The notes under the pieces are model-generated. The model saw only the letters and a list, made by a program, of their open reading frames with translations, had not been told where the DNA came from and ran no database searches. The position numbers were made by a program, and so were the translations under genes. Positions 811-46,728 of a DNA stretch of 64,000 nt are shown piece by piece. The DNA is from Vairimorpha necatrix (Eukaryota), in the NCBI GenBank assembly GCA_036630325.1, contig CP142729.1, positions 930,001 through 994,000 of the forward strand, read 5' to 3'. Position 1 is the stretch's first letter. Each line of letters begins with the position of its first letter.

Positions 811-1054
811 ATTTTTAGTATCTGTTAAGAATCCTATGTGTCAAATATATCATTTTTATGATTCATTTGACAACTTTAAAGTACAGATCATATTCATACT
901 GTTAAATATTAGTAAAACAATTTTTTGAATTTACTTTGTGATGGAGATCATTACAACACATTTTTTTGCAATAATTAATTTCGAGTATACTCTTTCTAGA
1001 AAATATTTACCATAGAAACTTTCTTTTATTTATAAAAAACATTTTTGACTCCAC

Positions 1055-1477
1055 ATGTCATTTGAGAAAGACAAATTTTTGATGAATAATAGTTCTGACT
1101 TAAACTCTTCTGCGGACTCCGAACTCAAAAATTTGAATCTTTTTTCTTTTTACAAAAAAAACGAGCCGGCTCTTACATGGAAAGAAGAAAGAGTTATTGA
1201 TAATCTAGTTGTAATGTCCAACATTACAACTGAAAATTTGTATAGCAATTTTTCCGGTATTCCAAGTTGCGAGTTTATCAATGACAAGTTACAATTTCTT
1301 GATTGTAACAGTCCTGTTGACTCTTATATAATACAAATGTATATTTATTGTGGAGTAATAGACGACTTCTCAATACTCATGAAACTGAAAAATAGTTTTG
1401 AGGATGAAGTAATAAGCACATTTGAGAAGAATGTACTAGATACGTATTATAAAAGACTAAGAGAAGTAGGGTTGTAG
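1055..1477 (+). CDS. Hypothetical protein (140 aa), possibly the 5' part of a longer decayed gene
   Basis: Open ATG-to-stop ORF, kept in both arms with 2 aa differences; coding-like sequence with stops continues to ~1800; no recognised domain. Confidence 0.5.
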   Translation: MSFEKDKFLMNNSSDLNSSADSELKNLNLFSFYKKNEPALTWKEERVIDNLVVMSNITTENLYSNFSGIPSCEFINDKLQFLDCNSPVDSYIIQMYIYCGVIDDFSILMKLKNSFEDEVISTFEKNVLDTYYKRLREVGL

Positions 1478-1883
1478 ACAAAAGAAGTAAGAAAGGCGGT
1501 GAGATACCACATATAATGAGAAATCTAATGTAAGAAAGAGAAACAAGTGGGAATAGGATTGCACATTTTGCAAATCAAAGCTTACAAGTTTGAATGGTTT
1601 AAATTATCATACTAACTATTACTCGGAAGAGAAACAAAAAATGGTGAAGCCATTTAAGTGTCCTATAGATGATTTTCATAAGAAATAAAAAATTAAGAAT
1701 GGCTTCTACTATTATTTTACGCATAGACTTATGGCGGATGCGGAAGATCTTGAAAAGCTTTTTATCAAAGTAAGACTAGAGAATGAGAAATATGAAGAAA
1801 ATTAATAAAAAATATTGTACTTTAAAATTTATATGCCAAATGGAAGCCTGTATTTCTTATATTCAAAAAAGCGTATTTGCTAT

Positions 1884-4800
1884 TGTGGTATTATCCACAT
1901 GTCAAGAAAATCAATTTTTCTAATAAAAACTTTTTCTAGAAAAATGAATTTTCTAGAATTTTATTTTTTATTTTTTATGACTGTTTATTTTTGAAAAAAA
2001 GGGCATGAGCTACAAGAAGTAAAGTCATCAGCAAAGCAATGACTGGTCACAAACAAAGACCAATACAGGCCAAAAGAGCCTTTAATATACAATTATTTAG
2101 ATATGATTTTAAACTAGGCAAAGTCCCCAGTGATAACATCAAGTTGAATTCAACGAATTAAACGTTAACAGTAACCCAGGAAACATTATAGAAGATGGGT
2201 ATACTGAATTCGAAAAGAACAAAATAGATAACACTTTAAAGTGTAAAGAAAAAATATTAAAAATATACGATATCAAAACTCAGTTCACAATTAAACAACT
2301 TCTAAGTTTGAAGAATTAGGAAAACAAAAAAAGGGAAAGATGAACAAATGGCCATATATACTTTTCATGCAATTACGATGAAAGAAAAGAAGCTCTTACA
2401 TGTAACTCGTATTTAGTTCTTAGAAAAAGGCTATTAGATATAGTTTATCCGCCTGAGCGAAAGAGACAAGACATCAGGTATTTAGATGCTATTAATCAAG
2501 CCACTTATAGTACCATTAAAAGTATGAGGAGATTGTAAGAGAAAGACTTTTAGCATATAATTATTACAATAGTCTCACTAAGAAGGAGACCTAAGATAAA
2601 AAAGAAGAATTATTTTTAAAGGAATTGAGCAATTTCACGCATTTGGAATTAACGCGTTTGAATATGATTAATAGATTTATAAATGAAATTTATGAATATC
2701 TAATTCAAGTTGAAAACGAATTTATAATAAACATGATTCAAAAGCTAAATCAAATGATTCGAACTATAACTCAGAAGCTTGTAACTTAAATGAGAAGAAG
2801 TGGTGTAGTTTTCATAAGAGTAACTTTTCCCACAAAAAGAATCATTGCTACTTGCAAAAAAAATAAAAATAATCAAAGACAAGAAAGTAATTATAAACCT
2901 GACGAAAATATGATTAATAAATTAAGAAAAAAAAAAATAATTGAAGATGTTATAGTGGAAGTAACAATGAATAACTAAAAGGTTGAGATTCAAGTAGACA
3001 GCGGATCAAAAAATATTATATTAATAAAGAAGAAGTGAATCAACTGAAATTACAAGCCGTCGAAGGCCAAAGGCTAAAACTATTTTAAACAATACAACCT
3101 TAGAATGCGATAAAAAGGTTAATGTAGAATTATTCAAAAGGATAGGGCCTTTAACACTAGCTTTTACGTATTAGAACAGGCTTCTGTTAACTTCATCCTG
3201 GGCAACGATTTCTTCCACAATGTTAACGCGAAAGTTGACTATCAAGCAGGAGTGGTAGAAATCGATAAGATATTATTAGAAATTCAAGGAATGGAGGAAG
3301 AAGTTGGAGAACGACTAGATAAATATTTAGGAAATAAGTCGGGGAAAGTTAGCGAAGATGAAAAGTTAAATAAATTTGTTGTCTCTGTCGTAGCCGATCA
3401 AATACTGACCAATCATATTTTACAAATAAACAGATTTGATTGGCTACAAAAAGTATTTAAAAACATTTATGAAAGAGGGGATGGAAAATTCTAATAAAAC
3501 GTTTGACATGGCGACAACGACAAACAATGTCGAATGCTTCACAGGAGAAGCAGGTGAGGATGTAAATGTCTGGCCGAGAGACATAATGTTGGTAAGGGAA
3601 GTTTCTAAATGGACCATTGATCAATTCAAAGCGGCATTGGTGAGCAAGCTCGGGGGAAGCATTATCATGGGCTTCCCAGACATTAGGCGGAAAAATGGAG
3701 ACAGTCAGCTTAGAGGAGATACTTCACTTAATGAAGAAAAGATTTGGAATATATAAAAACAACGATATAACACTAAGCAGGTTCCTCTCAATAACGGTCC
3801 CAGAGACGAGAGAAGATTACTCGCAGATGCTACAGGAAGCTACTGTAATATATGAGAGATCTCTTATAAATTTTGAAGCTTGGTGCCAAATGGTCATAAT
3901 AAATTACCAATGGAGATAAAAGCGCTGCTATACCAGACAGCAACTACAGTCCAGACGTGGCAAGGATTCATACAAAAGGCCGAGGAGATATCGTGGATTC
4001 CATATCCCGATAAGATGTTAGCTAGGACTAAACTACACGACAACGCGGGCAGAGAACCCCAACTAATTTTTACAAAGAAAAAGGATTTAAAAGAAGCACA
4101 ATCCACGAAAACCACTGCGACATAATAATAAACGGTGCACACTCCACGGGGAATGTAATCATTCCACAAGAGACTACAAGACGTTAACCATAATACTCAA
4201 TAGAGAAAGAAACAACTTGAAGAGAAAAAATATAAATGCTGTGGAACAATACGAAAGTGACGAGAAAGACCATGACGATAAAGAAATTGAATTTTTTTTA
4301 CACCATGTACAAAATAGTTTTAACCCGTTTTTTGTGGAAAGCCGTCTCTACAATAAAAATACGAAAGTACTACTAGACACTGGGGCCGATGTTTCGAAAA
4401 AATTACAATGACATTCCACAGGAAGAACGTAATAAAATTATTAGATATAATGGTGTAGTAAAAGATATAGGAAAAGAAATATTAAAAATAGAAGGCTAAC
4501 TATAAGACTCTATAATCGAAATAATGGAAAAGGCGTGATCTTCTCCCCCTTAATAATCAAAGACATAAAAATGCTATAATAGGAGCAAATGTGATATGCG
4601 ACAATAAAAATTTGATCTTAGATATTCTAAATGCACCAAAATATAGAATCAACCAAATGTCGAACTTCGCATGTGATTTAGAAGAGAATAAAATTTTGAA
4701 AGAGTATGAAGACGTCTTCAAAACAGAAATTAGCGACTTTAACCCCTGCACTGCAGGTAGTCATCGTATGCAGACGAACAGTACAAAGATAATTTGCCAA

Positions 4801-7800
4801 AGGAACGGAAGAATACCAGTATAACAAGAAGAGGCCGTAAATGAAGAAATCAAAAAACTCCTAGAACTTGGAATTTTAAGGGAAAGCAGAAGTCCCTGGT
4901 GTAGCAGAATACTGATGGTACCGAAGTCTGACAAAACTTGGAGAATGTGCGTAGACTATAGAGGTCTGAATAGCATAACAGTAAAGGACGCATACATGAC
5001 ACCTAGAATCGATGAGATTTTTGACAGTCTATCAACTGCAACTATTTTTACAATACTGTACGCGACTAGTGGATTCATCGAATTCCTTTACAAGAAGAAG
5101 ACAAGGGAAAGACAGCATTTTCTTATAGGGAAAAGAATACGAATTTAATCGTATGCCGTTCGGACTATGTAACGCCCCAGCAACATTTCAAAGGGCAATG
5201 GACAATATATTCAGGAAAGAAAACCATAATTTTGTGATCCCATACTTAGACGATATTATAATATATTCAAAAAACAAGATAGAACATAAGAAACATGTGA
5301 GAATAGTATTGGGGAAAATAAGAACGAGAAATCTATCGCTTAATAAGAAAAAGTGTTAATTTTTTAGATCGGAAACAAAGATTTTGGGGAACGTCATTGG
5401 AAACGGAAAAATAAAGGTAGACGAATTGTGCATTAAGGATATACAAGCGTACCCAATTCCTGCCACCATAAAGGAATTAAGGAGTTTTCTAGGAATGGCC
5501 AACTATTGCAGGGATTTTGTGACAAAGAAGGCAGAAATTACGGGACCCTTGTATGATGTACTTAAGGGCGAAAAACAGACATCTAGTAAAAAAATTAAAC
5601 TTACTGACAAGCAACTCGATACGTTTAAACCGGTTAAAAAAGTACTAATCCAAAATACAATACGTACACAGCAAAAATTTAAAGCTCCATTCATTCTGGT
5701 TACTGACGCATCTGAAACGGGAATAAGAGCAGTGCTGCTGCAAAAGAACAAAGGTGGAGCTGAAAAAATGATAGCCGCCTTTAGCAAAAGACTGGATAAT
5801 TGTCAGAAGAATTATTCAGTTACCGACAGAGAACTTCTTGGCTTAGCTAAAGGAATAGAACATTTAGACATTACCTTTTGGGAAGCAAATTTACGCTAAG
5901 AACAGACCACAAAGCCTTAATCTATCCATGGACAGTGAAGGATTCAACTAGTAGGATTCTCAGATAAGCTCTCAAATTGGAATACGACTTCGAATTGGAG
6001 TATATAGAAGGAGAGCATAAGATTGCTGATGGTTTTAGTAGAATTCACCAAGAATGTGAAACGCGTAACATTGATTTACATCAGTTATCGAATAATAACA
6101 TCAACTACATACTAGAGGAGTATCATAAAATATCAGGGCATGGGACATCAAATACCATGAAATTTATGATTTCACAGGCACATAAGTGGAAAACAATGCA
6201 CCAGGACATATCGAAATTCGTAAGCAATTGCAAAACACGTCTACTCTCAAGATATCAACGCGTGAAGACAAAGAACAAAGTAATACTTTCAGAAAGACCC
6301 AATCAGCTGTGGGGATTTGAACTGCTTGGGAAACTTTCTGACAACAGTGGAAGCGGATAATATTTGTGGCGATCGATCACTACTCTAAATGAATAGAAAC
6401 CAAGATCATACGAAGCAAAAACAGCTGTGAAATATATAGGGCGATCGAAGAATTAATCATTAGTAAGCATGGGATACCCGAAAGAATCTTGACAGACAAC
6501 GGCTTAAAGTTTAACAACAGCGTAGTACAAGCATTAGGTTCGAAGTATAATATATTATGGGGATTTTGTTCGCCATACCATCACCAGACTACAGATTGGT
6601 AGAGGGGGTCATACAAACATTTACGAACAAAATTAGAAAATTAGCAAACTATGACGAAATTGGCTGGGGAAAAGTTGTCAAAGAAGCTACATTGGCAGTG
6701 CATTTATCGTTTAACCGATCAATAGGAACATTGCCGTACATTCTAAAAAATGGTCAGCAAATAACAACAGCGATAGATGAGAGAATAAAAGTTACCCCTA
6801 AGACCTATACGAAGCAAGAACTTATACGGAAGAAGGACTTAAACTTTAAAAAATACGGCAAATAATCGTTAAAGGAAAAAAAGATATAAAGCAAAAGTTT
6901 AAAATAGGAGAAGATATTTTAGTTTACAGAGATTACCCAGGAAGTGGAAAATTAGAAGCTAAATGGTAACCTGGTTATATTATTGTCAAAATTTTAAGTG
7001 AAGACGCATTTCTTGTCAAAAGGAAAAATTCAGCAGGCGAATTGAGAGTTAACATAAGTCATATTAAGAAGGACACGTCGAAGACTGATTGAGGGGGTGT
7101 CATAGCCGATCAAAAACTGACCAATTATATTCTTACAAATGGACGGATTTGATTGGCTACAAAAAGTATTTAAAAACATTTCCGAAAGAGGGTATGGAAA
7201 ATTCTAATAAAACGTTTGACAGTCTCTACAGACAAAATAACAAAAGTTCAATTAAAGATGAAAATATAGTTAGAAATTTGACAGCTCACTACAAGAAAAG
7301 AAGAAATCTAGGAAAAGTTCTTTAAAAGAGAACGAAAACAAGAGTCTAATAAAAGAGACTAAGCGCCCTAAGAAAGTGTCTACTCTGTCTTCTGATAAAA
7401 ATGTAGAGAAGAAGTCTAAGAATGATTCTAATAATTCCTTACATGATAAAGTTTTGTCTCTAAGTTCCAGTATAAATGATTTCTATAAATTAGATCTGAA
7501 GTCGAATATTCTTGAAAGCTTGGATATTAAGCAGGAAAATGATTCTATAAAAATGCCTTCATTCAGTACACAGATAGAAGTGTCAAGGATTTATCATATG
7601 AGATCATCAAGAGAGAAGTGCCTTATAAATTATTTGAGTATTATGAGAATTTATACGATCCTATGCGAAGACCAAAATCATATAAATATACTTATAGTGC
7701 AACCACTATACAGTTAGCTAAAGTGAGAGATTTCTGCCGAGAACGCTTATTTAATCCTGATAAGGTTGGATGAAATTTACAAAATTTCGAAGAATTGAAG

Positions 7801-8149
7801 CGGTTAGTAAGAAAGGATATTGGGCCAGGTTAAAGGGGAATAAACGTTGGAGCCACATTAAAAATCTAAAGTTCCAGGAGAGACAGACTGTGGCATTATA
7901 CACATGTTAAGAATATCATTTTTTTCTGATAAAAACTTTTTCTAGAAAAAATGAATTTTCTAGAATTTTATTTTTTCTAAATGTTTTTTTTGAAAAGAAA
8001 AGCATGAGCTACAAGAAGAAAAGTCATCAATCAGCAAAGCAATGACAGGTCACAAACAAACAAAAACCAATACAGGCCAAAAGAGCCTTTAATAAACAAT
8101 TATTTAGAAATGTTTTTCAAACTGGGTAAAGTCTTCAGTAATAACGTCA
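1884..8149 (+). mobile_element. Outer Ty3/gypsy-type LTR element (gag-protease remnant, no RT), hosting a nested element
   Basis: LTRs 1884-2141 and 7889-8149 (TG...CA), TSD GCTAT. Protease motifs VDSGS (~2993) and FILGNDF (~3192); integrase-tail-like end at ~7750-7875. Confidence 0.85.
3386..7221 (+). mobile_element. Ty3/gypsy LTR retrotransposon (gag-PR-RT-RH-IN), frameshifted
   Basis: LTRs 3386-3508 and 7098-7221, TSD GTCTC, PBS TGGCGACAACG, PPT GAGGGGG. Motifs LLDTGA, WRMCVDYR, MPFGLCNAPATFQ, YLDDI, VTDAS and integrase. Confidence 0.95.
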
Positions 8150-8509
8150 GCTATTACGAAAAAAAAAATACTTTTGATATTAATGAGTCATAAACAATTT
8201 TATTTGTTCAATAATTTAGTGTAATTTTTTTTCTAAAACTATTACTAAATGAGCTCATTGTGCGATAATAAAAATTTAAATGATCTTAAGAATTTATGGG
8301 GGTTCATGGACTAAAAAAAGACTATATTAAAAAATATATTCGTTTTGAATGAAGAATTAAAAAATCGTAGTAAAAACCAAAGAAAAAAAAATCAGAAACG
8401 TATAAAGAGATTGTGATTTAAAGCATTGCCAATTGCTAATGTGTGAAATAATTGCCCTATTAAAAAATTCGTCTCATCCCTCTAAAAAAGTTATTAAACA
8501 GACATTTAA

Positions 8510-11500
8510 GTCTAATATCAGCATTAGTGTAAAAAAGGGGTCAAAATTTTAAATAAATTGTCCATTTTCTAAAAAAAAGAAAGAATGAGAAAACTTCAAA
8601 AAAAAAAACTAACTTGTATTAAATGTTATATTCTGTAATATGGTTGACCCCAATTTATGATAAATAAAGACATGGCGAACACAAGAAACAAAAAGTCGGC
8701 GCGTGAGGACTGTGGTCAGGTGATCAGAACGATACGGAATGAGTTTAGTATTATTATGTATGGATTGAGATTGATTGAACAGGAAGGGATTGAATTAGAA
8801 GATATTTATAGTTTAGGTTCAGAGGATTTGAGAAATTTTATGGTAGAATATGTGAGGAAGGAGGACGGAATTGAGAAAATGAAGAAAATTTTAGATGAGA
8901 TGTATAGAGTAGAGGAAGAGCAGAGAGGAGAGAAAGAGATGTTGAAGGAGATGGCGGAGAGAATCGTCAGAGAGGTAAGAGGAGAGATTGAACAGCAGAG
9001 GCGTTAGGCTGTGAGAAGAAGAGTTATAAGATTTTATGAGTGTCAGAGAATGGGACATAAGAGTGATAGATGTTATTACAAATATAAAGGAAAAGAAAAT
9101 AAAAAGGAGTGCAATGCAGTCTACGAAGATGATAGTAGTGTTAGTGAGCGGAGTGGATATAGGACGACAGCAGCCGCGAAGAGGCAAAAGAAGCCTACAA
9201 GTAGAGAACTTAAAAAAAGAAAAAATGAAGTTGAGGCAGCTGAAAGCGTTTTAGTACTTGAAGAACTGAAGACAAAATATAGGAAAGTGTTTAGTTCAGA
9301 AGACGAGGTTATAGAATATTTTCGATTAAGAAATGTAAGATAAAAACACAGGAGGGTGCTAAAATAGTGGAAAAAGGACAGTGCATACCTCAAGCATTAA
9401 TGGAGGATACTGGAAATTTTATTAAAGGACTGGAAAAGAGGAAGGTAATAAGAAGGAGGAATTCGGAATGGAGAAATCCAATAAGAGCGTTACAGAAAGC
9501 CAGATGGCGGAATAAGGCTATTGAGTAATCTGATGGCCTTGAATGATTTGGTTGAAAAGGATCCTTATTAGTTAGTTAATATAAGAGACATAATTAGGAA
9601 TACACAGGGTTCAAAATATTTTACGGTAATTGACTTTGAGGAAGCATTTTATAATATTGAGATCGACGAGGCAGATAAACATAAAACTTCATTTGAATTT
9701 AACAGAAGGGTCTATGAATGGAATAGTATGGTTATAAGATACAAGAACTCCCCGCAGATTTTACAAAAAATATTGAATAATCTGTTTGAGAGACACTTGG
9801 GAAAAGGAATAGAAGTGTATATGGATGATATTGTTATACATGCAGCGACGAGAGAGGAGCACGATATATTGTTAGGAGAAGCACTTAGGAAGTTGGAAGA
9901 TAATAAGATGATGATTAATATTAATAAGGTACAGTTATGCTTGAAGGAGGTAAAGCTATTGGGGGTTACACTGAATGGTTTAGAGATAACACCGTCTGAA
10001 AGAAAACAAAACGAAACGTTAGAATTCCCAAAGCCATAAAACGTGTCAGAAGTAAGGAGATTTTTAGGATTAACAGGATGGTTCAGAAGCTTTATAAAAA
10101 ATTATGCGGATTTAACGGTACATTTGACCGACAGTTTGAAGGGTAAAAACGAATGGAAATGAACACAAAATATGAAAGATGAATTTGTTAAGTTATAAGG
10201 AAAGGTTAAGACTTTGGGAAAGTTGAAGATAATAAATTATGAAAAGGAGTTTTTATTTAGAACAGATGCGTCAAACATAGGAATGGGCGCGGTAGTAATG
10301 CAAAAGAATGCCGAAGAGGAGTGGGTGCCGGTACAGTGGGCTTCGAAAAAGGTTACTCCCACGGAATCAAGATACGGAATAAGCGAGAAAAAGATGTATG
10401 CGGTCTACTGGGGAATCAAAAAGTTCGAATATGAATTAAGAGGTCACAAATAAAAAGTTGAAACAGACCATAAAGCTTTGATAGAAATCAGGAGAAAGCC
10501 ACAATTCGATAATAATAGGATTATAGGCGGATAGAGAAAGATTCAAGAGTTCGATGTTGCAATTGAGTACATGAAGCCAGATATAATGGTAGTGGCCGAT
10601 GCGTTAAGTAGAGCGCCCGTTGAAGAGACTGAGAAAGAGAAAATGATAAAGAAAAGAACAGTGAAATAAATTGAAGGAAAAGAGAAGAAACATACAGTAT
10701 ATGAAGATGGAAAGGAATACTGGGTCTTTGATAGTGGTATAAGAGCAAAGATACCAAAGGAGGAAAATAGGGCAAAGTTAATAATGGATTATTACGAAAA
10801 TGGAGGTCATAGTAGTGTTGGAAGTGTTTATTATGCGATGAAGAAGCTTTACTTTTGGTTAGGGATGAAGTCAGAGATTTATAATGAGTTTTTGAAGTGT
10901 GAAAAATATCAAATTTATAATAGGAAAATGTCGGGCGGATGTGATTTTATTAGTACCAGTAGATATTTAGAGAAAGTAGCTTTGATATGATCGAATTTCG
11001 CGACAAATGTAGGTACGTTTTGATTGGTGTTGATTACCTTACTAGACTAATTTTGGGAATGAGCATGAAGGAAAAAAAGGCTCAGAATGTTGCTTGGTTT
11101 ATAGAAAGTTTATGTAGGAACGGAAACCGACCAGAGGAAATAATAACCGATAATGGCAAGGAATTTGTTAACGAGGATCTTAGGATATTATGTAGAAGAT
11201 TAGATAATGCTCGCAGACAGATAAGCGTAGAAAGCCACCATAGTAATGGACGTGTAGAGAGAGTAATAGGAACATTATTAGAAGCTATTTTGAAAATGAA
11301 AGGCGATGATTTTGACGATAAGGTTATGAAAGCGATTGATATGTATAATAATAGTTACCACAGTGGGATAGATTATACAACGAAAGAGGCAGTTTTGGAT
11401 ACTAGTGGAAAAGATATGATAGAAAATGGTCCTGAAGGAAGAACAAGTAAGAAGTTTGTTAAAAAGAAGAGAGAAAAGTTTTACAGGAATCAGCAAGTAC

Positions 11501-12674
11501 GAGTAGCGAAAAAAGAAAATTTGAAGGGATGTACTGAATATGAAAAAGGACGATTTCTGGAGAGGGAAAAATTTACGCGATTTGTGGAGGAGATTCTTAT
11601 ATTGTACGATTGGAAACAGGACGGCTGGTGAAGAAAAGACATTATGATTTAAAAGGGGGTTTAAGTAAGTATGAGACTAACCGTCTTGGAGGGGGATGTT
11701 ATATTCTGTAATATGATTGACCCCAATTTATGATAAATAAAGACATTAAATAAAAAATGTAATTAATAAAATTTAAATATATATAAATTAAAAATATAAT
11801 ATTAATAATACTTTAAAAGTTTCCTGGCTCTCATTTTTTTAATCATATATAGAGTTAATAAATTTCGGCAAGTTCGTATGTCTACACACATTGGATAGAG
11901 AGGCCTCAAGGGGTCTTAATATTTTTTGATGATGTTTATATGAACATCTGTAACTCTGTTTATATGTTCGACTATGATTTACAGTTATAAGGTCCGCATA
12001 ATAATGTCTTAAAGTATATATGCCTTCCATATAACCGAATGGATGACATATAGAGATTTACCCATTTAAGCACGATGGAAAATAATGTATCTTTGTTTCT
12101 TTTATTATTTATTACGAGGACTATCTCCTTTGCCTTGGTTTTTTTACAATTCCGAAACACCAAACCCCCTTAACAAGCCTCACCCTACGATATTTAATTT
12201 TGACGATTTTACTCTCATCTTTCTCTACTATAAAAAATTTCTCTTTTATCCGTTTTATTATATATATACGCTTCTCATGAATTTTTAATTTATATAACTT
12301 CTATGGAAAACTTAAGTTTTGTATGTTACTTTCCGATAATCTTAAATATTAATTATTTTTATTTCTAAAATCCAGAAATTTACTATTTATAACAAAAGTA
12401 AATATTCTGCTTAATTGTATGCAAATACAGTATGATTCCAAATTGAAAATCTATGTTTTACATTTTGCAGCCTTACACCTCGAGGGCGGTTTCATTTGAT
12501 ACTCTTCTTTACCAACCTCATTTTATACTTTTCTGGTAGTATTTTTTGTTTGCTATATATATATATAAAAGTTTTGATTTCCTCATTGCTTAACTTCCCT
12601 TGCTTTTTTTAAAAAAGGGCAATTTTTTAAAAATCTTGACTCCCTATTTTTTTACACTAATTCTGATATTGGAC
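8510..12674 (-). mobile_element. Inverted-repeat-bounded Merlin remnant interrupted by a Ty3 element
   Basis: ~55-bp inverted repeats at 8510-8565 and 12617-12674. Minus-strand fragments WCFGIV, RNKDTLFSIV, WKAY and TVNHS at ~11890-12180 are ISXO2-type. No clear TSD. Confidence 0.6.
8624..11745 (+). mobile_element. Ty3/gypsy LTR retrotransposon with 49-bp LTRs, decayed
   Basis: LTRs 8624-8672 and 11697-11745, TSD TTAAA, PBS TGGCGAACAC, PPT GGAGGGGGA. CCHC knuckle, YMDDI, RTDAS, integrase TDNGKEF/NGRVER. Confidence 0.95.
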
Positions 12675-12749
12675 ATAATTAATTACTGAACACTTTTGTA
12701 AAAATAAAGAAGTGGCACGAGGAATACAAAATTTTTTTTCTATATTGAC

Positions 12750-13530
12750 AACGTCTGTTGCGCCAAAAAATCTACTAAAAATTTATTGATACGATCATGA
12801 TTTGATCCAAGGCCTTTTCTATAATCGTATCTTAAGTATAAACTATAATTTTCAATCTTATTTGTATCTCCACCTTCGTTGTTTTCAAATTCTTCCTATG
12901 ATTTACTATTTTATGCTTTAATCCAAAATTATCCACGGCTTTAGTGTATGATGTATTTCCATAGTAACAACAATAGTTCACATAAGTATGCGTTTTTAAA
13001 CTCTACTTTCAAAGTTTCGTGTTTTCCGTTATGAATTAATGTAACATAAATTTCGTTCAATCACCTCTTCGACTCCTCCAAGTATCAATTGTATTTTAGT
13101 AGTATCGTCTTCTATGAAGACAGATTGACAATTACCAAGCCATTTAATATGATAGTTTCAGCGACTTTAACCCGTATATTTTCTTCCTATATTTTTTTCT
13201 TTCAAGAAGTCTTGCTTAGAATATCCAAAAATTATTTTTTAAATTAAATATATGTTGACTCGGCTATTTTGAAGATAAATACTAGCTTGATAGTTTAAGT
13301 AAGAAAAGGCCCGCAGATAAACCTTTCAGAATCTTCTAAAATTTGATGGCCAATTTATAATCAAGTGTTATTTCTTAATTTGCTTTTTTTCTAAATTTTT
13401 ACAATACATATAAGAATTTTCTCTTCATTAAGAAAGGAATTATAGCACGGACATGTTACCTAAACATGAATATAAATACATAAGCTGTTAAGTATTATTA
13501 CATCTAAATTTATTTGAAAGTCTATTGCAA
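12750..13530 (-). pseudogene. Merlin transposase remnant
   Basis: Fragments ILGGVE, SYTKAVDNFGLKHKIVNH and TNKIEN (TDGY is clearer in the mirror copy at ~46438); many stops. Confidence 0.7.
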
Positions 13531-13594
13531 AATCATTATCTTGAAATATAGGATTCTGTTGAGCCCAGTTTCCTCCCTTTCTAAAATTCTTGCA

Positions 13595-14345
13595 GGTAAC
13601 CTTAGCCCAGTGGTCGATGGCGATGCTTGAATAGAGCATGGCTTGATTTGATACTTATGGGCACCAAAACGATTCTCTTTCTATGATGCAATGGAAAAAC
13701 TCAGACGATGTAAATGCCAACGATGAAAATAAGTTGATTCATGTGACTTAGTGTGTCCAGCCACAAAGGGATTAGCATCTAGTGTATAAACGCACTTCAA
13801 AGCCTAAAAACAGAAATCCACCACATGTGTTGACTTAATGATACATAAAAGTATCTAATGGGTACGGCATAGTTAAGGGCTATGGTTTGTGCACTCTAGA
13901 GTAAGATCCTAGAGCTAACTAAGAGACTAGACGAAGTAAGGCATAGAAGGGTTTGTAGTTTCCTATACTAATATTTTGAAGCACGGTGGCCGTAACTAGT
14001 GTACGTTTCGAATCAAAGAAGCCCAATAAAAAATGCTAAGCTATTGATGTGGCGGTGTAAGCAGTCGTATATGCGATACAGATGATTGTAGAGACCATTG
14101 AGATAGTACAATGATGTCTCTTCTCAAGATTTTAAACTCATGGCCGTTAAGTAGATCTGCTGCGAAATCGTTTTGACGAAATTTATGGCGATATTTAAAA
14201 TGTTCTCTTGGTTTAAAATCCATGAAAACGGAGTAGCATCCTGCACTGATGTCTTTTATGATAAATTATTTTTAGTAAGAATTCAACTGAATCTGTTGAA
14301 TAAGGACCACACCCAAATACTTAAACCCCTATCCTTACTTGCAAA
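13595..14345 (+). ncRNA. tRNA-headed structured RNA module, copy C1 (unidentified family)
   Basis: 13595-13666 folds as a degenerate tRNA (GGTAACC...GGGCACC-A, D-loop AGTGG, ATGCT/AGCAT stem). The body has multiple stops in the frames read and hairpins shared with four other copies. Confidence 0.6.
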
Positions 14346-15057
14346 GTCAAAAAAAATTAACAAATATTAATACGAAGAAAGATTAAATTTTAATTCTACC
14401 TAAGAACCGAATTGATCTATACTTATATTAATAAAAATGTAACGTGCTTGAAACATTGGTCCAAGATATAAAAAAAACGCCTATTCGTAACTATACTCGT
14501 AACTCTGGATATTTGAGGTCAAAAAAAAAGAATTAGTTTAAATTTCAACAGATTAATTAGTTTAATTTTTTAATCTAAAAATTCCCAATCGACTTTTTAA
14601 ACCCTCATAATAAAAGGATTTTATTAAAAATTTACATTACTGAAAATGAGTTTTATGTTTATTTGTTTATATGTTTTAAAGAGTTGTACTTTGACGGGAA
14701 AAGTTTAAAATATGAATGTTTGATTTTTACAAAAAGAAATACAATATGAATAGATGTAAATTGAGGGATGAATTTTTGATAAAATTCAAAAAATATGTGT
14801 TAAACAATTTCAAATCGATTTTAAAATACTTGATTTTTTTATATCGATAAATGTTCCCAAAATCAATAGGGTTTTCTCATGTATCTTTCAATTGGATAGA
14901 CTAGCGTCTTGTTGAATATATACAAAAAATGCGTAGAATTCTACTTTGTCTCTATTATATGATTTAATCGACATCTTTAAGTGATTTTTGAACTAAAGAG
15001 TTATATTATTTATCTGTCAAACACATTCATGGATTTTTTAAAAAACATTTTATTTTA

Positions 15058-16560
15058 ACCCCCGCTTTTCGATTGGAAAAGGACAAAATAAAATTATTGC
15101 TATAAATTTAAAACATAGACTATCAACCATAGTATTGGTTAATAAGTACCAAATATTCATAAAGACTCCTTTAGGACCGGCCTTCTATTTTGAAGGAAGT
15201 CAATTACTCACAAATGGAAGTGGCACTCTAAAAAAAGTAAGAAGGTTCGAAGCCATAAAAATAAGATATATCTTAACATACGGGAGTCCACTAAATGTTG
15301 TAATGAAGCATTATTGGTCAATCCCAAGAACATAAATCCTCTCTACGTTCTTGGGAAATGCTTCTTGCAACAGGACAATTTAGAATTAACAAAAGAGATA
15401 GTAGATAAAATTAGATCCGTGGACCCGAAACAAATATGTGCCACTATTTTAGAAGGGCATATTTTGTAAAAGACGGGTCAGGACGTAGAAGCCTACGATA
15501 ATTTTTTATCATATTTGAATACATCGTCGTGTGATGTATTCCTCTTCTACGGTCTAGATTAATTTACGATCTTTTAAAAAACTTTTTTTTGTCCTGGAGT
15601 GGTTTACCCTGGTCCTATCTGCTGACGTGAAACTTCCGAAAGTACTCGAAATTATGTACAGAATAGGGATCTGTTACAAAAGAGGGGAAATTCACAGATG
15701 CGCTTTGAGTTTTCAAATTTATAGAATCGTTCGTAAAGTTTGATTTATTTAACGACGATGTCAACCTTCAGATTGCGCATATTATGAGATCGCCGAGAAC
15801 ACAGAAATGTGTTCCAAGATCTCGTAAAAAATAAATGTTACCAGCAATCAGAATATTCTTGCTACTAGATCGCACAAGTGGCACAATATTAAAGAAAAAA
15901 TCCCGAAGCAATATAATTTATTTTTGAGCTATTATTGTTATTTTTCTCTAATTTGCTTCAACATCCGCGCACTCTATCTGGCCACACCACCCTCTAGCTT
16001 ATCTACTATGTTTTTAGTTCGAGATCCTCCTTCGCCGAGTCCCTGCCGGTGCTTAAAGCAGATGCTCTTTAGTGTCTTATTTATAAATCTCATTTGGATG
16101 CAAGCTTCGGTACTATTTGATAGGCCGATGACATGTATATAATTGCTATGGTATTTTGTCATAATTGCGGCCCATGTTGTGACGTATGGTAAAAAACTGA
16201 CGCAATAAAAAATATTTACAAATGTAATAACGAGCCAGTTTCCATCTAACTCTCCTTTAAGATTGTTTTGAAGAATTTAAGTATTGCAATTGTGATCTCT
16301 AAAACGAAGTTTTTGATCCACATATACTTTACATTGTAGTAAGAGTTATGGCTGAAGAAGTTTAGTATGAAGAAGCGCGTAATATTTATTTGCTCTGTTT
16401 TGACCTAGATCCCGCTTTGTATTTATCTTACAATTTGACAGATGGTCTGAAGAATTTTGAAATAAACAGCTATGAACTAGCTCAAAAACTGTTTTAACTG
16501 GACCTTATTAAAAAGATAACTGTAAAGAGACTCTTAATAAAAAAATGTAGATTATATAAT
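15058..16560 (+). pseudogene. TPR-repeat protein pseudogene, Ssn6/Cyc8-like, copy T1
   Basis: Fragments EALLVNPKNINPLYVLGKCF, EIMYRIGICYK and VNLQIAHI resemble Cyc8/Ssn6/UTX-type TPRs; stops, frameshifts and a retro-insertion. Confidence 0.7.
15901..16197 (-). mobile_element. 5'-truncated non-LTR retrotransposon (RLE type) 3' fragment inserted in T1
   Basis: Reads PYVTTWAAIMTKYH...EACIQMRFINKTLKSICF, an RLE C-terminus pattern; absent from TPR copy T2 at ~35790. Confidence 0.7.
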
Positions 16561-16600
16561 TTCAAAAAAAAAATCGTTTTTTAATGGTAATACTTCTAAA

Positions 16601-17362
16601 GGTGCGCTTAGGCCAGAGGTATAATGTGATGCTTCAATTGAGCAATAGCTGCTCGAATGAAAGAAGCACCAAAATTGTTTCGATTTTCTATGATGCAGTT
16701 GAAACAACTCAGACAATGAAAATGTTTACGATAATCATTAAGTTGATTCAATGAAAATCATGTGTGTCTAACCACAAAGGGAATTAGCATATAGAGTAGA
16801 ACCGCAGTTCAAGGCCAGAAACATATCACTTTCGTGGCGACCAAATGATACATAAAAATATCTGTTGGGTACGGCCTACTTGGAGCCTATGGCTGGTACA
16901 CTCTAGGGTGCAATTCAAGAGCTAACTAAGATGTTGGTCGACGAGGAAATAAAGGGTCTCGTGGATCATATTCCGCAAGATTTTGTAACACCTTGGCTGA
17001 AACTAGTGGAAGCCGGTGGTCGATGTAGCACAATAAAAAATGTTGGGCTTTTGATGTGGCGAATCAAGGAGCCGTGTGTGCATATAGATAAAGTAGACCT
17101 TTAGGCTAATATGATGATGTCTTTTTTCGGGGAATGGTATTAAAACAATGTCGATTAAGTATATCTGTTATGAGTTCACTGTTGACGCGATTTAGGGCAT
17201 AGATGGTGTAATATTTTTTGAGATAAAGTTTACTGTACATGCCGGACCTTGCCTCTTGGCAAGTAATATGGTGTAAGTTTTTGTGAAAAAGACTTCAAAG
17301 TATCAGTTGGTCCAATATAAGATAACAAAATAGCTTGGCCTGGTCCTTAAGTTAGTTATCCT
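16601..17362 (+). ncRNA. tRNA-headed structured RNA module, copy C2
   Basis: GGTGC...GCACC-A acceptor (16601-16671), GCTCGAAT T-loop-like motif; body collinear with C1 but strongly diverged. Confidence 0.55.
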
Positions 17363-19374
17363 GGCGCTACATAAAAATTCGTACCCCCCCCTAAAAAAAT
17401 TACATTGACCAATTAAATTTATATAAAAAAAATATTTTTAACCCTTAAAATTATATTTAAAACAATATTTTTAAAATAGTAATTTACAAAAGTTAAAATA
17501 TTTAAAAAAACAGTTTAAACATATTATTAAGTTCAAAAATTTAATTACTTTAACATAGAAAAAATATCAATTATTTTTACGCAGGCCAATTTGACTGTAA
17601 ATGGTTTGAATATTCTATATTTTCTTTTTTCCATTTAAACTCATCTAACCAACATTTAAGGTACCCGGGGGTTCGTCCCGGTTTTAGGGGTTAAAAAAAT
17701 ATAAAAAACGAACTTTTATATTTTTTTAATTTTTACCCCTATGACCGGAACAAAAAGGATAATCAAAAGCAACAGAAATATGGATCAAATTATAGATGAA
17801 AATCAATATATTTACGAGAAAAAAAGAATCAAAAACACTACTATAAAGTGGCGATGCATTGTACGAAGCTGTAATGCCAAAGCCACTAGTGGTATTGTTT
17901 ACTTCAATAATCTCGAATCCTTTACTATTTCTTCGGCTCATAATCATGAACCAAATCCTGAACTGGTCTGTAAGAAGAATAAAATAGATAAAATGAAACG
18001 GGAAATTATCTCTTCAAAGATTCTCTTAGAAACATTTTTTTTTCTGACTTCTGAGGAGCTGGGGAAGAAACAATCCCGCAATGGGCCCTATTGAGCCTAT
18101 TACAAGGATATTAAGGAATGCTCGGATGAATTCCTTTAATCCAAAACCATACGCCAACCAAAAATTGGGTTTATGTGCTGATTTATTAATCAGTCATACA
18201 GGCGAACAATGGTATCGATATGTGCCTGAAAATTACGGGAGTGACGAACCCAATGACAGTATAATTATTATTTATACAGATTCGGCCATAAAAATAGGCT
18301 CTATATGACATGTGGGCGATGGATGGGACCTTTACGGTGGTTCCAATTCCCTATTTCCAATTTTACACAATTAGTTTTATCCGTAATGCGCATGTATTCC
18401 CGATAATATTTGCAATTTTGAAAGATAAAAGTTTTGAAACCTATTGTTTTTTGTTTTAAATGTTAAAGAAAAGGTTTCCAGAGCTCAACCCAGGGTTGAT
18501 AAAAACTGATTGAAGAAGGCTGCGCTAAGAGCATTTTCTAGATTTTTCCTGGATTGTCAAATTTCAGGTTGTCTTTTTCACTTAGTTCAGGCTATTGATA
18601 GGCGTGTTAAAAGTTCAGGACTTTCTTCTGTTTACACATGTTCACCTATGGTGAAAAAGTTTGTTTTGTCTCTTACGGCACTTGCATATGTTGAATATGA
18701 CGAAATATTGTCTACTTTTTTGGAACTAAAACAAGACAGAAATTTTACGGAATGCTTGATTAAGTTATATTCCTATTTCTTTACAAATTATATTGATTTA
18801 GGATGCCGATTTCGGCCAAATTAGTAACACGCGCGAATAAAATGGATATATATTTTCCATGAAGGAATAATGCAATTGAAGGTTGGTATAATACCTTTAA
18901 AACCACATTTGGTACTAGTCGCTACAGTTTTTATCAATTAGTGAGCAAGTTAAAGGATGAAGAAGATATAGTTAGATTCAAGATATTCCATCAAACAGTT
19001 TTAAATCATGTTTTTGAACGTAAACAAGAATACATTGATAAAAAGATTTAAATAGCTAATTTTTTGAATAAAACTGTGGATGAAGGGTATGGTGCATATT
19101 TTGTCTTTGAAATTATTAAAGTTTCATTTTTATTTTTTTTTCTGAAAGTTTGTCCCGGTCACCGTTTTTTAAATACTTTTTGTAGCCAATTAAATCTGTC
19201 CATTTGTAAAAAGATGATTATCAGTATTTGATCGGCCAATCTGAAATCATTCAATTATGATAATCATACGCTCTCTTTCATTATAATTTATGAACTTTGT
19301 AGGTTATATTAAATAATAAATCTATTGTAGATAATTTTTTTTATGGAGGGGTGGGAGTAAAATGAAGTAGCGCC
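17363..19374 (+). mobile_element. Mutator/MULE-type transposon (FLYWCH-like + MULE domain), frameshifted
   Basis: WRC...CNA...HNH zinc finger, WAMDGTF, GCLFHLVQA, NNAIEGW. Imperfect TIRs GGCGCTAC...C-run/A-run at both ends; no TSD seen. Confidence 0.85.
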
Positions 19375-20254
19375 GAAATATTAATTTTCAAAGTTTTATT
19401 AATTCATTACGCGGCCCTAAATAAACGATAAACAATTTATTTATAAACTTAAAATTGACATCTGTCAAATACTCTGGCAATTATTGGATGACCATTTTAG
19501 ACTAAATTTACGTGGATACCTTTATTTCGAATTATCAGACTAAAAGTAACGGAAACCGACTTGTTGATGTTAAACAATAGGCAGCAAAAAAAGAAAATAA
19601 ATATCTATTCATAAATTAGTTCTATTAATTTATCTATTATACAATAGATTGTACATACGGGTTGCATTATGATGTGTGATATAATTTTGAACCTAATAGC
19701 CGCTTTAGAAACATGTATAGTTGTTTTGTATAGATTTTAACCATTATATATGATCATATTCTAAAAAAAATAACATAAAACCATTGTACTACTTCATTTC
19801 TTGTTTGACTTCTTTATCGTAATATTTAATATATGAATCTAAAATTTTTGTTATAGTTTAATTTGATCATGAATTATTAATTTTTTTAGTAATCATAATA
19901 CAAATTTTGTTCAATATATTGTGGTATTATGATTACCGCAAACCATTTGGTATAGTTCGGAGCAATATCCCGTTCACGGAAATATTCAAGGGTAAAAATT
20001 AAAAAAAACATTATACTGATTGGTGAATCAGAAAATAGAACAAATAAATGATCCCTTTAATGACTGCCCAAATTTTGTCTCAATCTTTTTAGAGGTAAAT
20101 CTTGAGACAATAAAATGAAAAACGAGAAAGTAACAAGGTTTTAAGTACTTTACCAAGCAACCTTAGACCTCTTCTACTTTAATCTTGTAAAATTATTACA
20201 TTATCATCTTCTTTGCATAATTTTACTACAAAATATATATCTATTTTTTAAAGC

Positions 20255-20550
20255 AATTATTAGTTTATTTTTTTCAATTTATCTTTAATGCCGCGCACTC
20301 TATCTTGTCACACCACTTCAAACTATCTCTACTATGTTCTTTGTTTCATATTCTCACTTGGCAAGTCTCTACCATGATTAAAAGTTAATGCTCTCTGATG
20401 TCTTCTTTATAACTCTCATTTGATTGTGCTCTTTGTTACTTGTTGATAGAGCGATGGTATTAACATAATTGCTGTGATAATCGTCACAATTCCCTTTCAT
20501 GTCATGACATAGGGTATAAATCAAACTTGCATTTGTACATTGGGCCCATT
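20255..20550 (-). mobile_element. Non-LTR (RLE) retrotransposon 3' fragment, solo copy
   Basis: Homologous to 15901-16197; reads MYKC.../FIPYVMT*KGIV; may extend to ~20680. Confidence 0.65.
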
Positions 20551-21830: not shown

Positions 21831-23923
21831 TGCAAATTTCAAGTAAATACTACGATTTTTTGAAATATTTTTTACCCTTTTCATACGTTTTTCAACGGGA
21901 TACGCTCCTAACGGATATATTTTTTGCCCTTTCTATATAAGAAGTTTTATAGGGAACCCCTTTAAACGATGACACAAATTATTTTTTATGTTTATTTTTT
22001 TGAAAATAGATCATTGACCAATCTATTCCAAAAATTATTTATTATTTTAATTTTAAGGCATATAAAACTGAAATAGAGACATAAGAAGAAAAAATGCCAA
22101 ATAATATAAATTTAAATAATTTTTTACACCCCATAACAATTCAATATGAGAGAACATAACAGAAACATTTGTAACTATTACCACTGGGATACCCCACCAA
22201 AGAATAGCAGGACTCTATGGTAGATTCATTGCCTCACTTATATGGCGCGTAGCCATTACATATAAATAAAACAATTTAATTTCATTGATTTTTATTTGCT
22301 CAGGGATAGCTCCTCTGGATTTCGTCGTATATTTCCATTGTATTTTATGAAGAGCATTATGCATGATCATTTTTTTATAGTGTAGAATTTCTCTTTAATA
22401 CTCTCCCTCATAAAAATACAGATTTATACATTTATATCGATTTCTTTAAAAAGAAAACCTTACGAGAAGTATTAAAACGTATCTTATCAAATTCTGCCTT
22501 GAAAACAAATTGTGTTTTTGTGTATATAAATTATAAGCCCACTTCTATTCATTATGAAGAGATTTATGTCTAAATACAACCAGTTTTACCTCCACCCACC
22601 AAAAAAAGAGAAGAAGCAGAAGAATGATTACATACCCACATTAGATCATATATTATTTGTATAATTAAATTGACATCATAGAATCATTTGAAACTGATTA
22701 ACAATGACTATTCTAATATTATTTTTAATTCTGAAAACTGCGAGGCACTTTAGAGAAAGAAAGCATATGCTATTAAATTGAGGACATATTGTGATGTGCT
22801 TTACACAACATAATTATTTATCTTTACCTTAACCTAAAATTGTCTAATAATGATACTTAAACAAAATCAATCTATACAATATTAGGAATATAATTATCAT
22901 AAAACGTAAAGATCAAGGAAACACCATAAATATCTGTTAATATATTATACATACTAATCGATAAAAAAGTAGAACAATTCAAATGAATATAATTTTAGTT
23001 TCAACTAAAACCTTTGCCGCCACTATTTTCAAAAAAAAAGCGTTAATATTTCTAAAATTTGAGTATATATGTTGAAAGAATAGTATACAGATAATTTTTC
23101 GATTTTTTACATTAAATAAATGCATGAATATTAAATCAAAGAATTATTACATATTTAAATAATGTATAATGTTTTTTGATTTGCTACATATTTTGAACTT
23201 TTTATATTGATATTGTTATTTTTATTGTCTGTTAATGCGTTGCTGTGTATTTTTTCATTAAATTGAACAGTTATACTTGTGATTGTTGTTATTTGAACCT
23301 GATAAAAAATAACACAACCCCGATGACTTTGATACAAAAAACCTTATTCAAGTTTATAAATTCGTTAAAACATCACATTAAACAAAGTGATAATATTTAA
23401 GTCTTGGAGTTTAGAGAAATCACAATAAAATTATGATGAATTTATTGTTTACTGGCTTGCACCTTTTTTATAACATTTGACATGTTGATGCTTTTTAAAA
23501 ACAATATAAAAAGTACGAAACATATAGTTTGTTTTTGTATGTATTTTGTCGTTAAAAATATGTTTCTATATATTAGTTACGATTATATAGTTAAATTTCT
23601 CGAGCTATACATATTACCTCGGAAGTTAAATAATGTAATGCTTTTTTTTAAAAGTACTATCATAATTTGAAGAATTGCTACGAAGTTTGTATTGTTAATT
23701 TTTTTTACAAACAAACAAAATTAATATATTTATATGATAAATCATTAAACAACGATCAGAAAAACAAACATATTGTTAATATAAACAATTTAAAAATTTA
23801 AATATTAATTAATTAAATTCAAAAAATTAGTTATTTTAACATAAAGAGTAATTATTTAATTAACAATTTTGTTTAATCTGATTTTTTTTAATGATAATTT
23901 AGTATTTAAATTCATTTTTATTA

Positions 23924-24271
23924 ATGGGTATGAAATATTCAAAAAACGAAGATGAAAAATATGTAGAAGCTTTGTTTGGTCTGTTGAGGATGCGTAGGGA
24001 TAAAAAAGTTTATCCTAAAAAACTGTATTTTACACGAATGCAACTTTTTGTTTTGAAAAAAATTTTTAGGTTGTCGGTTTATCCTTCTAAGGATTTAAAA
24101 AATGACATCGCATCGATACTAAATTTAAGCACTTGTTCGATTGATGACTGGTTTGTAAATGAGCGAAAATTGAGTTTACGACCTTCTACAACGAATAAAT
24201 TATATGCAGTAGTTACGCCCAGGAAACTACTTCAAATATACAATGATGCATTGTATATTTATTTGCAATAG
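23924..24271 (+). CDS. Homeodomain protein (115 aa)
   Basis: FTRMQLFVLKKIF...YPS...IASILNL...IDDWFVNER fits homeodomain helices including WFxNxR; intact ORF. Confidence 0.85.
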   Translation: MGMKYSKNEDEKYVEALFGLLRMRRDKKVYPKKLYFTRMQLFVLKKIFRLSVYPSKDLKNDIASILNLSTCSIDDWFVNERKLSLRPSTTNKLYAVVTPRKLLQIYNDALYIYLQ

Positions 24272-34200: not shown

Positions 34201-34887
34201 AACAAATTTTTAAGTTTTAGGTTATATTACAAGAGTAAATCAGAAATAGCTGCAAGCTAAACAATAAATAGTGTGTTCAAAGATTTCGTATTATTAATAC
34301 CATTTCTTTTTTTCTTTATCAAATTGCACTCCTTGAAAATTGTCCATAAGGCTTTTTATTTACTTTATTTTTTTATCAATGATTCTCAATCTTTACCTTG
34401 ATGTTATCATTAGTTGAGATTCAACAACAATTCCCTTGGAAGACTAGTTAAGAAGACCTTTAAGTCCAGGATAATCGCTATTCATTAAGATGTCGCATGT
34501 GTATATAACTAAAATTTAATACATTAGGCTAAATTGAATCTTATTATCTCGTAGGTAGAATCCTCGAGACATGCCAAAAGCAACAAAAAAAAATTTTAAG
34601 TTTATTTTTTTTACCCTACAAGGTAGAGGCAAGAAAACCTTACATGGGGACCAAAGGAATACAGGCATGATTCTTATCAAACTAGTACTGTATGATTCTT
34701 ACTCACTAAAACTCATTCCATACAACAACAGGGCTGGAAACTCCGCCGTATTCATTCTACTTTGCTCCAGAAACACTTTCCATTTATACCACATATCTTG
34801 TTTAGAAGGAAAACATAACGATTAATATAATCGACGTGTTTTAATGCCCCCCCCCCCCCAAAAAAAAAAAAAAAACGTTATTATTTT

Positions 34888-40867: not shown

Positions 40868-41616
40868 CCTTGCAAGTAAGGCGTAGGATCATAGGTATTT
40901 CGCGTGATCCTTATCCAACTGATGCAATAAGATTTTATCTCACTATAATTTACCAAAAAAGTTATCGGTGTAGGTCGCCACGCCGTATTCATGGATTTGG
41001 AACAAGAAAATATTTTTAAAATATACCTTAAATCGCGTCGAAAGTGATTTCACAGCAGATATACTTAACGGCCATGAGTTTATGAACCCGAGGAGAGACA
41101 TCATTGTACCAACTAAAAGTCTTTACAATCATCTTTTTGCATATACGGCTCTATACACCGCCGCATCAATGGCTCAGCATTTTTTATTGGACTGCGTTGA
41201 CCAAAGTCTTCCACTAGTTTCTTCCAAAGTGTTACAAAAAATTGTATTATAAGGTTCTCTAGACCTTATATTGCCCAATTTCATCTAATCCCTTGTAGCT
41301 CTAGATTTTTACTCTAGAGTGTATTGGCCGTAAGTCCAAATAGCTCGTATCAATCATGCACTTTTATGTAATAATTAGTCAACAACGGTGCTAATGTTTC
41401 TGGCCTTGAAGTACGTCTCTACTCTATATGTTACTTCTCTCTTGGCTGGACACATACAAGTTTCATTGAATAAAATTGATGATTGTCGAAAATATTAAAG
41501 GCGTCTGAAATGTTTCAACTGCATCATAGAAAAGAGAAACAATTTCGGTGCCCCCGGGATTCAAACCAAGACAATTTTAAATAAAGCATCACATTATAGT
41601 ACTGCCTAAGCGTACC
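40868..41616 (-). ncRNA. tRNA-headed structured RNA module, copy C4
   Basis: Head 41546-41616 ends GGTTTGAATCCCGGGGGCACC. Perfect hairpins at 41249-41269 and 41299-41319; long-range helices CGGTGTA/TACACCG and GCCGTAT/ATACGGC. Confidence 0.6.
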
Positions 41617-45811: not shown

Positions 45812-45879
45812 CGCAAGAATCTCAGAAGGGGAGGAAACTGGGCTCAACAGAATCCTATATTTCAAGATAATGATTTTGC

Positions 45880-46640: not shown

Positions 46641-46728
46641 CGCAACAGACGTTGTCAATATAGAAAAAAAAATTTGTATTCCTCGTGCCCCTTCTTTATT
46701 TTTACAAAAGTGTTCAGTAATTAATTAT

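Follow-up and report, generated by a model that had tools for sequence, protein, structure and literature searches.

Whether five related sequences of about 750 nt, each beginning with something that resembles a tRNA, are genes for a structured RNA or copies of a mobile element is the question raised by one stretch of DNA from the microsporidian Vairimorpha necatrix. The stretch (GenBank assembly GCA_036630325.1, contig CP142729.1, positions 930,001 to 994,000 of the forward strand) is 64,000 nucleotides long and is here called the window, and all positions are counted from its first letter. An earlier note, made from the letters alone, had proposed either an unrecognized large noncoding RNA (ncRNA) or an unusually structured short interspersed element (SINE), in both cases with helices kept by structural selection. 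Our results indicate that the five sequences, copies C1 to C5, are probably old, inactive copies of one multi-copy, non-coding, tRNA-derived SINE-like repeat family.

Build of the repeat and its relatives elsewhere

All five copies that the earlier note had placed in the window, with the strands and 5' ends given in Table 1, were confirmed by MAFFT, blastn, and nhmmer, and an nhmmer profile of the five had exactly these five matches in the 64 kb at E ≤ 1 and nothing further. The copies are 747 to 762 nt long, all below 1 kb and non-coding, and they are collinear over about 750 nt with a mean column identity of 76% in the MAFFT alignment. With C1 as the query, blastn gave 87% identity to C5, 72% over 702 nt to C4, and 70% and 72% over shorter parts to C2 and C3, respectively. 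The pairwise identities are star-like, with 88% between C1 and C5 and 60 to 70% for all other pairs (64% for C1 and C2). C4 is a mosaic, the 5' flank and the first ~600 nt being like C2 and the last ~150 nt and the 3' flank like C1 and C5. That the body is collinear and non-coding, as had been suggested, holds for every copy: there are 8 to 24 stop codons per frame in all six frames, and the longest open stretch, 92 codons, is not common to the copies, so that no open reading frame (ORF) is conserved. An A-run of 7 to 9 nt stands at the 3' end of four of the five (C1, C3, C4, and C5). The element thus appears to consist of a tRNA-derived 5' head, a long body with no known origin, and a 3' A-run, which is the build of a SINE. 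In the body of C3, at ~34850-34875 (-), 16 T in a row are followed directly by about 10 G; at this place the other copies show just a brief TC-rich sequence (such as TCTTCTC). The run may be a homopolymer expansion or an assembly artefact.

The multi-copy nature of the family is seen in two public sequencing runs, X1 and X2, neither of them recorded as RNA, in which parts of positions 13400-17500 are present (0.33 and 0.20 of the words sampled). Their contigs were placed on positions 13000-18000, and depth was taken as word depth. The flanks had a depth of about 5 to 30, whereas the cores of C1 and C2 exceeded the flanks 10- to 30-fold in X1 and about 200- to 1,500-fold in X2, values that are contig depths and not copy numbers. 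At each well-supported variant site in the core there were six to eight different contigs, most placed contigs were only 85 to 95% like the window, and the contigs departed from the window sequence at the element edge. Between 13638 and 16667, contigs with matches to the element on either side have a canonical T-arm (GGGTTCGATTCCC, with TTCGATT in a 5-bp stem) and then an acceptor-like end, which replace the decayed 3' half of the head. Since none of the five window copies has these T-arm letters, the family probably has further, better-preserved members elsewhere. Exact-pattern scans of metagenome contigs for further copies gave no match; two hits in prokaryote contigs were rejected as chance matches of 21 to 25 nt in bacterial metagenome-assembled genomes, without further similarity. 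In the literature, five short words taken from the core hit nothing but unrelated primers and constructs.

The tRNA shape that had been ascribed to the heads is retained in part. The A-box consensus (TRGCNNAGTGG) and the B-box consensus were scanned across the window. The A-box had only two matches against 0.18 expected, TAGCCCAGTGG in the head of C1 and its twin in C5, both at head positions 9-19, and these two are duplicates of each other. In the head of C4 there is a B-box-like motif, GGTTTGAATCC, which is not significant alone, one-mismatch B-boxes occurring five times in the window against 4.1 expected. An anticodon-like stem is retained in the heads, and it is the main source of a slight gain in stability over shuffles in three of the five (z = -2.2 to -3.1). 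The part of the claim that did not stand is the recognizable tRNA. ARAGORN at default thresholds found no tRNA in the window; at 80% thresholds none of its 23 calls was one of the five heads, and at 75% the heads of C1 and C2 were not among the first 39 of 78 calls listed. The Rfam tRNA model had no match at E ≤ 10 in 4.2 kb containing C1 and C2, in the 96-nt head of C1, or in the 92-nt head of C4, and the cloverleaf was the minimum-energy fold of none of the five heads. Exact matches to the B-box consensus (GGTTCGAAGCC) were seen elsewhere, at 15244-15254 (+) and 36443-36453 (-); they are probably due to chance because they lie within the coding part of the TPR pseudogene copies described below.

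Table 1. Positions of the repeat copies, their motifs, and the surrounding duplicated features in the window (X1 and X2 are the two public runs)
Feature	Position	Strand	Remarks
Copy C1	13595..14356	+	Head ~13595-13668, body, A8 run 14349-14356
Copy C2	16601..17347	+	3' fifth strongly diverged
Copy C3	34629..35389	-	T16 run then ~10 G in body
Copy C4, mosaic	40870..41616	-	First ~600 nt like C2, last ~150 nt like C1/C5
Copy C5, palindrome partner of C1	45057..45811	-
A-box-like motif in C1 head	13603..13613	+	Exact match to consensus
A-box-like motif, twin in C5 head	45793-45803	-
B-box-like motif in C4 head	41557..41567	-	Head positions 50-60; one mismatch to consensus
C1 core, high-copy part	13668..14168	+	Depth 104-315 (X1), 3717-6369 (X2)
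C2 core, matching part	16674-16840	+	Depth 310 (X1), 15037 (X2)
Left arm of large inverted duplication	811..17201		Partner 61264 down to 41022
Broken pseudogene, TPR "general transcriptional corepressor"	15245..16536	+	Amino acids 14-348 of 412-amino-acid protein; ends just upstream of C2
TPR corepressor pseudogene, sister upstream of C3	35533-36491	-
TPR corepressor pseudogene, sister upstream of C4	41702-43015	-

Tests for a conserved RNA structure

A different explanation of the five sequences is that they are functional genes for a structured ncRNA of about 750 nt, with a tRNA-like leader serving RNA polymerase III (Pol III) and RNase Z and with helices kept by compensation. We give this explanation hardly any credence. 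The RNAalifold consensus of the five copies spans 785 columns and is weak, at -46.1 kcal/mol; its covariation term, +6.08, is unfavourable, and the cloverleaf was not recovered. The antisense strand reaches -35.9 kcal/mol, which is likewise within the null, so the sense strand folds slightly better, as a structured RNA would. The consensus structure also beat per-pair shuffles (0 of 500), another point that can be cited for an RNA, but we rejected this comparison as a measure of significance because it is circular, the structure having been fitted to the same five sequences. The valid null consisted of 100 alignments in which the columns had been shuffled within conservation classes and the structure refitted. 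Its consensus energy was -38.3 ± 5.1 kcal/mol, so that the observed value has z = -1.54 and was equalled or exceeded in stability by 8 of 100 shuffles. The pairs with compensatory changes numbered 23, against 19.7 ± 4.9 in the shuffles (29 of 100 as high), and the percentage of paired cells was no higher than in the column-shuffle null. The structure conservation index (SCI) of the five-copy alignment was 0.26, and C1 alone showed no extra stability over dinucleotide shuffles (z = -0.91). The RNAalifold check that the earlier note had named did not confirm its claim.

It is true that several copies allow helices to be placed at comparable positions, and the outer long-range helix (columns 471-477 with 678-684) has 82.9% of its cells paired. 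For the five helices of the earlier note, set in fixed columns, the share of paired cells was 75.0%, the shuffles giving 72.7 ± 1.7% (reached by 66 of 500); there was also a covariation score of 0.200 against 0.193 (reached by 209 of 500), and two-sided change in 5 pairs against 3.2 (65 of 500). The registers of the TTACC/GGTAA and CACCA/TGGTG hairpins differ between copies, as do those of ATAAGGT/ACCTTAT and ATAAAA/TTTTAT, and neither C2 nor C4 has an intact ATAGT/GCTAT hairpin. With the covariation score and the compensatory pairs both at chance and several registers shifted, the proposal of covarying helices, the long-range one included, is not borne out. Choosing helices by eye will produce such apparent compensatory changes in any alignment of ~65% identity.

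One of twelve 120-column segments does stand out (columns 241-360, z = -2.9, 1 of 100, SCI 0.44), which speaks for an RNA and against our reading of the copies as a decaying repeat. The segment holds two short palindromic hairpins in which variation mostly breaks pairs and seldom compensates, and which have the look of inverted repeats inherited from the consensus of the family. The search against all of Rfam, also named in the earlier note, gave no match at gathering score in the whole window. At E ≤ 10, the 4.2 kb containing C1 and C2 had six weak matches on both strands, and the sole sense-strand match within a copy was to tmRNA, in the body of C1, with 7.7 bits against a gathering score of 47. 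Taken together, no structural signal beyond the null was observed, and the copies show no sign of a conserved structured RNA. The depth of tens to thousands of times the single-copy level, in the form of variant contigs, is typical of a mobile element and argues against ncRNA genes, as does the lack of a cloverleaf in the heads. Of the earlier alternative of an unusually structured SINE, the SINE part fits what was found (a multi-copy core, a T-arm elsewhere, a non-coding body, an A-run), and the structural selection is unsupported by the shuffles and by the comparison with the flanks given below.

Dicistronic tRNA-snoRNA and tRNA-5S units and long RNAs with tRNA-like ends come from conserved genes, one or a few in number, whose product is processed and functional. 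The window family resembles them in that a longer non-coding sequence has something tRNA-like at one of its ends. It differs from them in that it is decaying and multi-copy and has neither a conserved structure nor an Rfam match above noise.

Duplications around the copies and the level of conservation

The copies lie within a large, imperfect palindrome. The arms 811-13640 and 45768-61264 are 96 to 100% complementary, and going inward the identity drops stepwise to 90% (12500-14839 versus 46897-44552), 83% (14832-17201 versus 43399-41022), and then ~70%; positions 14397-17127 are also 72 to 83% identical to 37316-34868. The stepwise drop suggests that the inverted duplication is old and that its outer part was homogenised more recently. 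For the central ~17.3-34.6 kb, the searches run showed no partner arm. C1 and C5 are palindrome partners, and C2, C3, and C4 each lie within one copy of the same duplicated unit, the units of C3 and C4 being spaced more widely because of a 3.4-kb insert (37337-40811) flanked by a repeat pair (65%) related to the one around the 3.1-kb Gypsy-like unit described below. The five copies are therefore partners in tandem and inverted segmental duplications and not independent witnesses, which leaves very few independent comparisons for any claim of compensation and further weakens the case for an ncRNA.

The duplicated unit includes a broken pseudogene of a TPR corepressor (Table 1), the copies of which are frameshifted pieces with 52 to 92% amino acid identity, and the product of one TPR ORF matches an annotated Vairimorpha necatrix protein at 94% identity. 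This was the one informative protein match as to the organism (two protein-atlas look-ups gave only "eukaryote"), and with the make-up of the window it fits a Nosema/Vairimorpha-type microsporidian. C2, C3, and C4 start ~65 to 145 nt past the last detectable pseudogene residue (amino acids 321 to 348 of 412). The 65 to 90 C-terminal residues of the protein were sought downstream of these three copies, as expected for a split target, and gave only noise-level matches. In the N-terminal part of the pseudogene, identity to the annotated protein reaches 92%, and identity between copies 98% (15267-15490), while the rest is at 52 to 79%, which looks like recent gene conversion from the functional gene. 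A second repeat, unrelated to the five copies, lies at 15910-16195 and 20232-20520 (71% identical to each other). The first of these is missing from the C3 unit, which has a ~260-nt indel at the matching place, and has a raised depth in X2 (861 in the bin 16006-16172); it is a separate mobile-element insertion inside the TPR pseudogene.

The shared starting point of C2, C3, and C4 after the pseudogene, together with the fact that local duplication accounts for all five copies, could mean that the repeat is not mobile at all and is no more than what lies 3' of the TPR-corepressor pseudogene in a unit that was amplified locally. We consider this highly improbable. In both runs the core has 10 to 1,500 times the depth of the flanks, and those flanks include part of the pseudogene; other copies have T-arm letters that are absent from the window, the contigs leave the window sequence at the element edge, and C1 and C5 have no pseudogene upstream.

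The conservation of the copies can be compared directly with that of their surroundings. For C2 and C3, the 300 nt directly upstream are 68 to 72% identical and the element 56 to 75%; for C2 and C4, the upstream spacer is 81 to 99% identical and the element 46 to 78%; and for C1 and C5, in 150-nt windows, the element is 79 to 95% identical and the flanks 84 to 99%. The well-conserved patches belong to the pseudogene part (for example, 15267-15490 at 98.7%) and not to the element. The copies are thus no better conserved than their flanks, and no purifying selection on the element is observed, which is a further point against functional ncRNA genes.

Origin of the family and its place among known elements

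We explain the origin of the copies as follows. Active family members would be transcribed by Pol III from the head, and the reverse transcriptase of a partner long interspersed element (LINE) would copy the RNA into new sites. In the window itself, one insertion, or at most two, hit the 3' end of a TPR-corepressor gene copy and was then multiplied with its flanks by tandem duplication and the large inverted duplication, followed by patchy gene conversion. Neutral drift to 60 to 70% identity has since erased the cloverleaf and left "compensatory" changes only at chance level.

Several observations weigh against this explanation. No convincing target-site duplications were found around C1 and C5, an empty site (a paralogous site without the element) was sought in the window and not found, and no LINE that could serve as a partner is present in the window; retroposition is for these reasons inferred. 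The match between 15910-16195 and 20232-20520 was considered as an empty site and rejected, as it is a different repeat. The bodies of all five copies contain runs of four or more T (T4+), one of them near position 380 in four of the five, where Pol III should terminate short of the full 750 nt, and the heads in the window fail every tRNA detector tried (ARAGORN and the Rfam tRNA model). The length of ~750 nt exceeds that of all 175 families in SINEBase. About 14 nt directly upstream of the head (TAAnAnTTCTnnAG) are common to C1/C5 and C2 to C4, meaning that the unit starts before its tRNA-like part or that all five copies come from one locus. Finally, the enrichment of the core differs ~40-fold between X1 and X2, and the contig depths may include another organism, such as the host.

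Some of these observations would fit another class of repeat with a tRNA-derived piece in it, such as a solo or non-autonomous long terminal repeat (LTR), a DNA-transposon derivative, or a composite fragment of the "unknown" kind, and we keep this alternative because of the missing target duplication and empty site, the T4+ runs, which speak against full-length Pol III transcription, and the length, which is typical of an LTR but great for a SINE. A distance of 3 kb separates C1 and C2, which are direct repeats, there is no poly(A) tail of convincing length, and "unknown" repeats make up 14% of the Nosema bombycis genome in the published repeat table (PMC3614468). Even so, we think such a class unlikely. 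Neither within C1 and C5 nor around them are there terminal repeats, inverted or direct, and TG..CA ends are not common to the copies, those of C2 to C4 being different. C1 and C2 cannot be the two LTRs of one element, since they are only 64% identical and lie in a duplicated unit. The A-box at +9 to +19, the B-box at about +50 to +60, and the T-arm found elsewhere are all at the positions they have in a tRNA gene, and they are at the 5' end.

Among known elements, it is therefore the tRNA-derived SINEs with which the family is best compared. SINEBase defines a SINE as shorter than 1 kb, with at least 100 copies, a tRNA-like head, a body, and a tail, the head showing 60% or more identity to a tRNA across 60 nt or more (PMC3531059, Vassetzky & Kramerov 2013). 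By the summary given there, its 175 families measure 75 to 662 nt without the tail (mean, 253), and a body of unknown origin is the commonest pattern (41% of families) (PMC3531059). By that description, the window family is like SINEs in its order of head, body, and tail, in having A- and B-box motifs at tRNA positions, and in being non-coding, multi-copy, and shorter than 1 kb with an A-run. It is unlike them in its ~750 nt, in the T4+ runs of the body, and in window heads too decayed to score as tRNA.

Lepidoptera are the hosts of Vairimorpha necatrix. Their tRNA-derived SINEs (PxSE1-3, SfSE1, and others) are described as 263 to 339 nt long, with (GT)n or (ATGT)n tails and thousands of copies, and horizontal movement between host and parasite (a baculovirus) is documented for such elements (PMC8010984). 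Compared by description, these and the window family share a tRNA-related head with A- and B-box motifs, the lepidopteran elements being shorter and having other tails (PMC8010984).

For microsporidia, our search of the literature for SINEs (Dfam and Repbase lay outside that search) found no description of such a family. The repeat table of Nosema bombycis, a close relative, has a SINE row of 28,669 bp, or 0.18% of the genome, which stems from automated classification and comes with no sequence or description in the part of the paper at hand (PMC3614468, Pan et al. 2013). The same paper reports 6.45% hAT elements, Gypsy elements, Dong-R4 LINEs, and 942 segmental-duplication pairs; the window is likewise rich in hAT, Gypsy, and segmental duplications, and the SINE row can be likened to our family by name only (PMC3614468). 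A 2014 survey of 19 microsporidian genomes lists LINEs, with families reported in Nosema species, LTR elements, and four DNA-transposon superfamilies, and the word SINE is missing from its main text as available to us (PMC4202319). The genome of Vairimorpha necatrix itself is described as having 28.3% G+C, 50% repeats, tetraploidy, and many MULE-domain proteins, and the accessible text of that paper does not use the word SINE (PMC10759460).

The window is AT-rich (24 to 36% G+C in 2-kb steps) and holds Gypsy-type ORFs for gag, reverse transcriptase (RT), RNase H, and integrase, an ORF of the FLYWCH type, and a hAT transposase like FAM200/GTF2IRD2. At 8623-11746, a compact Gypsy-like unit of 3.1 kb (gag, RT, and integrase ORFs) is flanked by 51-nt direct repeats that are 98% identical. 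In the right arm of the palindrome there is a hAT-type insertion of 2,713 nt (54408-57120), with terminal inverted repeats (CAGAGGTGGGCAAA... / ...TTTGCCCACCTCTG) and an 8-bp target duplication (GTCTACGC at 54400-54407 and 57121-57128). The left arm, otherwise 96 to 99% identical, retains the intact, unfilled site at 4949-4956, so this insertion postdates the palindrome. Its transposase ORF (55191-55946) has 85 to 87% amino acid identity to flea and acanthocephalan proteins, with relatives scattered over animals, which hints that the element may have been transferred horizontally. The central part between the duplicated blocks contains an intron-less homeodomain ORF at 23903-24271 (+) (Pfam PF00046, E = 4.7e-9).

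It is tempting to go one step further and see in the repeat the first characterised SINE family of Microsporidia, ~750 nt long, with hundreds to thousands of copies, and perhaps exchanged with the insect host, as seems to be the case for the hAT element nearby. We regard this as possible but doubtful; an exchange with the host could explain the ~40-fold difference in depth between X1 and X2.

In conclusion, the five copies do not represent a new class of structured RNA. They are an ordinary decaying repeat, and the family, which is long and SINE-like, is probably derived from a tRNA and belongs to a microsporidian. Because little has been documented on SINEs in microsporidia, it has a modest interest for those who study the mobile elements of such genomes. 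If a long family of tRNA origin takes up a visible share of so small a genome, it would be worth describing, and it might serve as a marker of transfer between host and parasite.

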